NCBI GenBank assembly: GCA_964187785.1
Contig: OZ076409.1
Location: 186,001-250,000 of the forward strand
Direction: 5' to 3'
From: Amphiscolops sp. MND2022
Taxonomy: Eukaryota
DNA: 64,000 nt
The notes beneath the pieces are model-generated. The model saw nothing but the letters and a program-made list of their open reading frames with translations. It was not told the origin of the DNA and made no database searches. A program made the position numbers and the translations under genes. This document shows, piece by piece, positions 53,025 to 53,681 of the stretch (position 1 is its first letter; each line of letters opens with the position of its first letter).

Positions 53025-53681
53025 ATGAACCGTTTGCCATTTTCTACCGCGGATGATGCTTATCTGGCACCAGATCTTTTTGCGGATATGCGATTATTGG
53101 TGACTGATTTGGAACTACCAATGATGGCGGGGACGACAGCGGTGGGCGAGGTGTTGCGACGCCCAGAACCACTCCGGAGAGCAGTGAGATTGGCGTTAGG
53201 CGAGCACGTAAGTTGTTGAGTGGTGTAACTTGTGAAGCTAAGACATTGTGGAGAAGAGATTTTGAATTAGTTCTTAGCACTAAGAGTAAAAAGGAAATGG
53301 AAAGTATTGTCTTTAGCTTTGATTGTATAAGTTCTGTAGTTGCAGTTTCTAAGTACGATAAGGTAAATAGAGACGGAAATGTTTGTGAAATTAATGTTTT
53401 TGTGTATTGATTGCAGTTTGTTTTAGTGGAGATCGAAGCTACAGTCCGGAGCCAAGGACGTTTGGATTTTTAAACTAAAAGCCATTGTACGGGGGTGGGA
53501 GATGACTGCTCCACAAGATCGGCCGGACATAGCCCGACGGCTGGATCGGAGTCAGTTTTTTCAAGTGCTGCAGGACTTGGCGGAGTTGGGGGGATATATG
53601 GTGTGCCTCTGCGCGGGGCATCCTAAGCCGCCTCCAAATGGGGCGACTGTTGTCCCTGCCGAAAGGGAAGATTTATTATAA
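53025..53681 (+). CDS. Predicted spliced antisense accessory gene, join(53025..53207,53427..53681), 145 aa, unknown function
   Basis: Two GC-rich open segments; CAC|GTAAGT donor; TTTGTTTTAG acceptor; phase 0 join open to TAA. Confidence 0.55.

Follow-up and report, generated by a model that had tools for sequence, protein, structure and literature searches.

Evidence for a spliced antisense accessory gene between pol and env of a Ty3/gypsy-like retroelement

To our knowledge, protein-coding antisense genes are found only in a few retroviruses (HBZ, APH-2, and ASP) and in some plant Ty3/gypsy lineages. ASP of human immunodeficiency virus type 1 (HIV-1) is a small protein of debated function whose unspliced antisense frame overlaps env in another frame. 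HBZ of human T-cell leukemia virus type 1 (HTLV-1) and APH-2 of HTLV-2 are accessory antisense protein genes of deltaretrovirus proviruses, expressed from spliced mRNAs with a short first exon (summarized in PMC11963269). The locus described here lies in a 64,000-nucleotide stretch of DNA from Amphiscolops sp. MND2022 (the window; positions 186001-250000 of contig OZ076409.1, in a 1.07-Gb assembly), in which a predicted spliced gene on the plus strand, with coding exons at 53025-53681, runs opposite to the gag, pol, and env-like genes of a long terminal repeat (LTR) element. We put at roughly 0.75 the probability that an env-bearing, Ty3/gypsy-like endogenous retroelement here has a genuine accessory gene, encoded opposite to gag-pol-env and working in the manner proposed below.

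The predicted gene is like HBZ and APH-2 in the respects just listed and like ASP in being an antisense frame in a retroviral genome. HBZ codes for a bZIP factor, with transcription from the 3′ LTR, whereas the whole of the gene in the window lies within the pol-env spacer, with >6 kb to either LTR, and Pfam scans detected neither bZIP nor any other domain in it. Together with a conserved upstream exon it occupies 52.7-53.7 kb (6.4 and 7.8 kb from the 3′ and 5′ LTRs, respectively), a position that does not fit the 3′-LTR transcription of HBZ and APH-2. The hosts of those two genes are vertebrate retroviruses, whereas the present host is a Ty3/gypsy-type element of an invertebrate-like genome; and the ASP frame overlaps env and is unspliced, whereas the present gene is split by introns and has a nonoverlapping slot of its own, the 4.66-kb spacer from the pol stop to the env start, on the opposite strand from gag, pol, and env.

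The nearest analogue in architecture is provided by plant elements. According to the main text of PMC11963269, Ty3/gypsy elements of the Tat/Retand lineage (Grande, RIRE2, and Retand) carry antisense open reading frames (ORFs) downstream of pol with a TRP28 domain (PF04195), the figure given for Retand, Grande, and RIRE2 being 97% of clusters with antisense TRP28 ORFs adjoining tandem-repeat arrays. The Grande antisense product is described there as a nuclear protein expressed from its own promoter, the plant ORFs are mostly >600 bp with TRP28 or other known domains, and the word "intron" occurs 0 times in that main text (PMC11963269). Antisense orientation, a place downstream of pol, a long internal region, tandem repeats, and conservation across families are common to those elements and to the present one. 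The plant elements, as that text presents them, lack env, whereas the element in the window belongs to an animal genome, bears an env-like gene, and encodes antisense an orphan protein of 145 amino acids (aa), without TRP28 and with two conserved introns. Pfam scans gave no match to Transposase_28 (TRP28, PF04195).

Among env-bearing elements, mosquito BEL/Pao elements reportedly carry chuvirus-like glycoproteins (PMC7642597) and can be listed beside the host element as relatives in kind. The metazoan env-carrying Ty3/gypsy "errantiviruses," as portrayed in the main text of PMC13524379, share with it the LTRs, gag, a pol ordered protease (PR), reverse transcriptase (RT), RNase H (RH), and integrase (IN), a downstream glycoprotein gene, and many near-identical copies. 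That survey (eLife 2026) was limited to pol and env within 500-1000 nt of each other and to regions of ≤10 kb; here pol and env are 4.66 kb apart in a 19.3-kb element, with two sense ORFs, repeat arrays, and the antisense gene in the spacer, so that, by the limits given in its main text, the survey would exclude this element (PMC13524379). The word "antisense" occurs 0 times in the same main text. Searches of an open-access library turned up no paper on a spliced, protein-coding antisense gene in an LTR retrotransposon of an animal. The gene resembles the known antisense genes in layout but, by its sequence, belongs to none of their families, having neither bZIP nor TRP28 and apparently not being LTR driven.

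Gene structure and selection on the reading frame

The coding part of the gene was resolved into the following features.

53025..53207, plus strand: coding exon 1; ATG at 53025-53027 plus 60 codons, giving 61 codons and 183 nt, ending ...LALGEH
53208..53426, plus strand: intron 1; 219 nt, donor CAC/GTAAGT at 53208, acceptor TTTTAG ending at 53426
53427..53681, plus strand: coding exon 2; 84 codons plus TAA, 255 nt

The first-pass annotation of the window had read this structure from the letters as an ATG at 53025, 61 codons, a GTAAGT donor, a 219-nt AT-rich intron, a TTTTAG acceptor, and 84 GC-rich codons; each of these was found where it had been placed. The exon 2 translation runs from WRSKLQSG through GGYMVCLCAGHPKPPPNG to EREDLL, with TAA at 53679-53681, and includes CLCAGHPKPP. 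The GC content is 0.536 and 0.537 in the two exons, 0.32 in intron 1, and 0.27 in the 3′ flank. The gene is only partly visible in an ORF track because exon 2, and not exon 1, passes an 80-aa filter. When all frames on either strand were checked, the plus frame of the gene was the only one open across both exons.

A first rival explanation is that these are chance ORFs with splice-like hexamers in a noncoding spacer, their conservation being due to recent copying or to constraint on the sense strand. Forty-three stop-to-stop frames of ≥80 aa overlap the 20 kb at 44000-64000, and both GTAAGT and TTTTAG are short motifs; a pair of ORFs this long is by itself not unusual, and it is conservation that lifts the gene above chance. 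A DNA search of its own genome returned 40 scored matches among 91 candidates, 34 of them full-length at 95-100% identity, and 32 were aligned. The ATG, GTAAGT, TTTTAG, and a 183-nt exon 1 were kept in 32/32 of these young copies and a 255-nt exon 2 in 31/32 (254 nt in L016), and exon 1 measured 183 nt in all 37 copies that were aligned. Among the young copies the density of variable sites, per 100 nt, was 4.9 and 3.5 for the exons, as compared with 9.1 for the intron and 11.7 and 18.5 for the flanks. As these 32 copies are 96-100% identical, their intactness proves little by itself, which is a point in favor of the chance explanation.

More divergent siblings were more informative. Two copies, L033 and L034, are ~74% identical to the window over the region and have the same pol-to-env context. 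In both, the exons measure 183 and 255 nt and contain no stops and no gapped codons, and the ATG and the acceptor are unchanged; the donor is GTAAGT in L034 and GTAAAT in L033. Conservation of splice sites and frame in sibling copies, which had been proposed as a check on the prediction, was thus borne out. Intron 1 of these siblings is 208 nt long versus 219 nt in the window, with an identity of 61-62% (56-61% in another comparison). Differences between the window and L033 at codon positions 1, 2, and 3 numbered 8, 3, and 25 in exon 1 and 17, 8, and 50 in exon 2, so that 75 of 111 differences fall at third positions (binomial p = 1.9e-13). Exon 1 showed 24 synonymous to 7 nonsynonymous codon changes and exon 2 showed 43 to 15 (67 to 22 in total), and the Nei-Gojobori proportions of nonsynonymous (pN) and synonymous (pS) differences for the gene were 0.09 and 0.76, the latter saturated. 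For comparison, the nonsynonymous-to-synonymous ratio omega versus L033 was 0.059 for pol and 0.032 for env. The substitution pattern of the antisense frame, as read from these alignments, is that of purifying selection.

The overlapping frames behaved otherwise. The minus-strand ORF at 53044-53469, which covers exon 1 and the intron and is the only open minus frame, showed 13 synonymous to 76 nonsynonymous changes and 2 stops in the sibling; a plus-strand ORF at 53108-53410 showed 13 to 54 and 4 stops; and the minus frame that shares the periodicity of the antisense gene contains stops. Chance ORFs are hardly credible given a frame that stays intact at ~26% divergence, indels that avoid the exons, the third-position excess, minus frames that cannot account for it, and a protein that is kept in two further families and in a homologue very probably from another organism (see below). 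The structure, position, and conservation of the gene and the purifying selection on it are shown by the sequences.

Synonymous divergence (dS) versus L033 is uneven along the element (window positions 48300-57900), at 0.64 for pol, 1.31 for env, and 1.66 for the sense ORF at 51703-52137, and it is saturated for the antisense gene, in which 54/74 third-position changes are transitions. This unevenness suggests, from the alignments, recombination between families or a locally raised mutation rate. It also bears on a second rival explanation, in which the antisense RNA itself is the functional product, through double-stranded RNA, small RNAs, or interference with sense transcription, and coding is secondary. 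Retroelement antisense transcripts often exert their effects as RNA, the region is complementary to the genomic RNA, and its synonymous divergence is unusually high relative to pol. An RNA function nevertheless fails to explain why amino acid changes were avoided while synonymous sites saturated, or why indels respect the frame, and we regard it as highly improbable.

Divergent families and splice-site conservation

A protein search of the genome with an exon 2 variant gave 103 matches, at ~35 to 100% identity. A third family (L037-L047) has kept both exons, with amino acid identities of 70-73% for exon 2 and 77-82% for exon 1; its exon 1 has an in-frame one-codon deletion, its intron measures 210-219 nt, and its start codon lies one codon upstream, giving MSNRLP.... 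In further families the start codon lies 4-5 codons upstream, in frame. The omega for exon 2 across families was 0.08-0.22. The protein has, on this comparison, been held through saturating synonymous change, because third positions (identity of 0.36-0.58 between families) are far less identical than first and second positions (0.73-0.86).

The divergent exon pairs number 24 as listed and represent 23 distinct copies, as the overlapping loci L031/L032 give one copy twice. A GT directly follows the last exon 1 codon in 23/23 of these copies, as part of GTAAGT in 21, and an AG directly precedes exon 2 in 19/23. The four copies without the AG comprise L048, L054, and the second unit of L056, which have stops or frameshifts elsewhere, and L037, which has an altered C terminus. 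The length of intron 1 in the divergent copies ranges from 97 to 219 nt.

These data bear on the possibility that the region is coding but otherwise spliced, be it as separate small ORFs, as a C-terminal part read from an internal Met (MTAPQ...), or as some other combination of exons. The public automatic ORF calls P0004, P0005, and P0006 start at that internal Met of exon 2, and intron 1 of the window family, at 219 nt, has a length divisible by three. Conservation and synonymous bias, on the other hand, set in with the first codon of exon 2, which lies 25 codons before the internal Met, and also extend over exon 1; GT and AG persist at the exon edges while the intron length drifts; the fourth codon of intron 1 in the window copy is an in-frame stop; and the distant relative P0010 (see below) aligns from the first exon 2 residue. 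Another splicing pattern is quite unlikely, and a spliced gene for a 61 + 84-codon protein, probably with an upstream noncoding exon, is supported comparatively, with a predicted junction at 53207/53427.

It is also unlikely that the gene is a passenger, that is, a piece of some other mobile element, or a gene of the cell, captured once in reverse and useless to the element, or that the selection stems from a copy domesticated by the host. Retroelements do transduce host sequence, this one also carries a MATH/TRAF-like ORF, and the antisense cassette forms tandem arrays alone, as at C5:54.21 Mb with a period of ~1.26 kb. A useless passenger would decay, whereas pN is 0.09-0.22 with saturated synonymous sites in at least three separately amplified families; no cellular paralogue outside the element context was found among the loci examined; the cassette-only arrays carry stops and frameshifts; and no terminal inverted repeats bound the cassette. 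The antisense placement between pol and env was identical wherever flanks were inspected (L031-L034, L039, L047-L050, and L052). Selection on the protein in at least three families, each with several copies, argues, on sequence comparison, that the protein serves the element. A nested transposon had been considered as a further possibility and was dropped, as terminal inverted repeats around the cassette were searched for and none was found.

The tandem copies took two forms. At L056 (G000:C5:54213601-54216600), the array has a unit of ~1.26 kb that matches only window positions 52313-53733, and further matches of this kind lie at C5:54208925-54217728 and C1444:537347-543536. These cassette-only arrays consist of the antisense cassette plus its upstream region, without pol or env, and the units examined all have stops or frameshifts. 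At L031/L032 (G000:C1:65338001-65356000), three partial copies of the spacer, ~83% identical to the window, stand in tandem 4.1-4.5 kb apart; in two of the three, exon 2 ends early, past the C-L-C motif.

Protein product, relatives, and transcript ends

The predicted product of 145 aa has 19 acidic and 19 basic residues. Its most conserved motif in exon 2 is GGY-x5-GHP-x-PPP-x-G, near the C terminus, and the protein also has the acidic N-terminal motif FSTADDAYLAPDLFADM. The C-terminal E-R-E-D-L-L fits the acidic dileucine pattern, [DE]xxxL[LI]. Pfam contained no family matching either exon at E ≤ 0.01, and scans of 11 and 14 family members at E ≤ 5 gave nothing consistent, only two single-member noise matches. 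A sequence search of the PDB returned nothing meaningful (best E of 0.85 for exon 2 and of 0.026 for exon 1, the latter versus designed TIM barrels). In a protein atlas, exon 2 scored at most 0.84, while exon 1 scored 0.95 with Response_reg, with 125/256 features in common. A response regulator receiver domain (PF00072) was rejected for exon 1 after hmmscan matched 0/14 sequences at E ≤ 5 and the structural model proved all-helical; the likeness to receiver domains is confined to one short motif.

Among 5.8 billion proteins, word-index searches recovered short unnamed ORFs only: 4 with exon 2 alone, 6 with exon 2 plus P0010 (none new), and 16 with exon 1, unnamed and 53-98% identical. One of these ORFs, P0006, matches a place in this genome with 100% identity. 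When 1.84 billion representatives were searched with a profile, there were 9 matches, one of which, P0010 (106 aa), is a true distant relative; P0008, P0011, P0012, and P0013 were set aside as spurious, being long and matched in several stretches, and P0008, P0011, and P0012 also being repetitive. A scan of metagenome contigs yielded 252 pattern matches, none of which was confirmed. Against the exon 2 profile, P0010 had an hhalign probability of 98% at 35% identity, with the alignment starting exactly at the first exon 2 residue. The motif common to P0010 and the family is GG-[YF]-x5-GHP-x-PPP-x-G. P0010 very probably comes from another organism, because its best match in this genome is only 38% identical and there is no close copy. 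Just before its aligned part stand the four residues MLFQ, as would be encoded by a pyrimidine tract with CAG at its end. A zinc or metal site at C-x-C-x2-H had been considered and was dropped, as P0010 lacks both cysteines.

Upstream and downstream of the coding exons, the features were as follows.

52521..52745, plus strand: three imperfect direct repeats of ~75 nt, with units starting near 52521, 52600, and 52673, directly upstream of the 5′ donor
52700..52759, plus strand: 3′ end of exon 0, a probable noncoding 5′ exon, at a conserved junction
52760..53010 or 53018, plus strand: intron 0, predicted in the 5′ untranslated region (5′ UTR); donor GTAAGT at 52760, acceptor either the conserved TTTAG that ends at 53010 or, in the window family only, a TTTTAG that ends at 53018
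53682..53900, plus strand: AT-rich 3′ flank, GC 0.27, with AATAAT at 53732 and ATTAAA at 53880

The first-pass annotation had pointed to a GTAAGT at 52760 and to an acceptor-like site before the ATG, at 53018. The former is present and belongs to a junction, TTCAxATTxACAA/GTAAGTTCG, that is conserved in 11/14 copies, 247-396 nt upstream of the start codon. The latter exists as TTTTAG at 53013-53018 on the plus strand and is not kept in L033/L034, whereas the TTTAG that ends at 53010 has been retained. In 14/14 displayed sequences a pyrimidine-rich tract followed by AG was judged by eye to lie 7-45 nt upstream of the ATG, and indels of 4-8 nt relative to L033/L034 fall inside intron 0. A coding upstream exon was rejected, as in 7/11 copies none of the frames that run up to the donor contains an ATG; the conserved donor at 52760 probably marks a noncoding 5′ exon. 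The repeat region at 52521-52745, which is 87-89% identical to L033/L034 and whose ~75-nt repeats were not reported by Tandem Repeats Finder, is a candidate internal antisense promoter or enhancer. The AT-rich flank at 53682-53900 is the probable 3′ UTR and polyadenylation region; its ATTAAA at 53880 is not kept in L034.

Proposed working, host element, and neighboring features

Transcription, splicing in vivo, the promoter, the polyadenylation site, and a regulatory role we infer from these features. An internal antisense promoter in the pol-env spacer, at ~52.5-52.75 kb, would drive a plus-strand transcript, which would be spliced twice, with removal of the 5′-UTR intron (52760-53010 or 53018) and the coding intron (53208-53426), to give a three-exon mRNA that terminates within the AT-rich stretch preceding pol. 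Translation from the ATG at 53025 would yield a soluble, mostly helical protein of 145 aa without a signal peptide or membrane segment, which may act in trans as a small adaptor or regulator of the element's expression or of its dealings with the host, probably through protein contacts of the acidic N-terminal motif and of the proline-rich motif that is invariant at the C terminus. Splicing removes a sense-oriented intron from the genomic RNA, and the intron is lost on reverse transcription, whereas an antisense intron is not recognized there and is inherited. Because the introns of this gene are antisense to the genomic RNA and are not removed before reverse transcription, every new copy would inherit an intron-containing gene, and the conserved antisense introns fit the rule that only such introns survive retrotransposition.

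Several observations weigh against a functional gene of this kind. The synonymous sites are saturated versus a pol dS of 0.64, a sign that the element has a mosaic history. Many of the oldest copies are degraded, as is expected for dead insertions, and tandem arrays of the antisense cassette alone exist. A motif scan of the 3′ flank detected no canonical AATAAA downstream of the stop. The analysis found no recognizable domain, no bZIP, and no clear nuclear localization signal in the protein, in which acidic and basic residues are equal in number (19 each). Both cysteines of the C-L-C motif are absent from P0010, and the AlphaFold models of the separate exons, while helical, are of low confidence (predicted local distance difference test scores of 64.5 and 54.4).

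Given that the gene is real, a regulatory or adaptor function stands at about even odds; such a function is suggested by analogy with HBZ and with Grande/Retand and by the proline-rich C-terminal and acidic N-terminal motifs. A more speculative and on the whole doubtful proposal would see the element as the invertebrate equivalent of a "complex retrovirus" that is expressed from both strands and the gene as the founding member of an unfamiliar family of retroelement regulators. The protein might in that case be a switch that tunes sense transcription or RNA export, or an antagonist of host silencing; it might act with the neighboring duplicated RNA structure next to pol; and the family might predate the divergence of the element subfamilies, with a member in at least one other organism. 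With an intron-containing antisense gene in its own slot under long-term purifying selection, this animal env-bearing Ty3/gypsy element suggests that retroelements far removed from the vertebrate retroviruses may also have come to carry accessory genes and to express both strands. It offers a clean natural example of the survival of antisense introns alone through retrotransposition, surveys that demand a close pol and env overlook large, gene-rich elements of this kind, and the role of the orphan protein could reveal new forms of retroelement self-regulation or of handling of host defense.

The host element was composed as follows.

44248..63557, minus strand: host LTR element, 19,310 bp, env-bearing, Ty3/gypsy-like
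44248-46322 and 61483-63557, minus strand: LTRs, 2075 bp each, 99.57% identical, with TG..CA ends
3 nt past the 5′ LTR, minus strand: primer-binding site, TGGTGCGACCAGTGAGG
61124..60045, minus strand: gag, a frame in the host element
60075..54469, minus strand: pol, a 1868-aa frame with Pfam protease, reverse transcriptase, RNase H, and integrase, in that order
52137..51700 and 50976..50344, minus strand: sense spacer ORFs between pol and env
49810..47654, minus strand: env-like ORF, a 718-aa frame with Pfam viral fusion glycoprotein PF24664 at 1.7e-39, class-III-like
47118..46345, minus strand: MATH-domain ORF, a 257-aa frame (Pfam)

The LTR ends, the primer-binding site, the PR-RT-RH-IN order, and the downstream glycoprotein gene are those of an env-bearing Ty3/gypsy LTR element. 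The earlier proposal, which drew on complex retroviruses, was supported comparatively in that the gene is antisense, spliced, and protein coding; its host is an env-bearing element of the Ty3/gypsy type, outside the Retroviridae. The host element gave no match in Rfam and tRNA scans.

Between the antisense gene and the pol stop lie two copies of a noncoding element of ~92 nt, at 53870-53961 and 53983-54075 (minus strand), which is 96-100% conserved between families that differ by 20-40% nearby. RNAalifold gave -23.2 kcal/mol for the minus strand versus -11.9 kcal/mol for the plus strand; three pairs show compensatory changes (GC to CG and back, 9:7, and AU to GC and back, 10:5), and G-U pairs, one of them in 17/19 sequences, fit the minus strand. 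The ~92-nt element had no match in Rfam or tRNA scans. This neighbor of the antisense gene is probably, on the folding models, a structured cis element of the sense genomic RNA.

The sense ORFs at 51700-52137 and 50344-50976 and another at 50808-51101 (all minus strand) showed purifying selection versus L033 (omega of 0.07 and 0.19) and third-position periodicity, with no Pfam family. Because the spacer sense ORFs are under purifying selection, the element has several accessory frames besides the antisense gene. The MATH ORF at 46345-47118 (minus strand), downstream of env and directly before the 3′ LTR, matched TRAF/meprin MATH families (PF21355 at 5e-22 and PF22486 at 6e-22) and looks, by its sequence, like a captured signaling domain of host type. 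Tandem repeats with a 51/111-nt unit in ~5-10 copies lie at 51046-51593, and others with a 76-nt unit in 3.2 copies lie at 49878-50120, just upstream of the env start on the sense strand; repeat copy number within the element differs among sibling families.

Elsewhere in the window, a satellite array of ~9.7 kb at 22860-32538 is built from a 51-bp unit, with copies ~97% identical and a strong AT skew of -0.32 to -0.33 (T over A). The remnant of another LTR element occupies 2885-6793, with 240-bp direct repeats, 95% identical, at 2885-3125 and 6555-6793; its frames include DUF5641 (6.6e-27), a domain typical of BEL/Pao integrase C termini.

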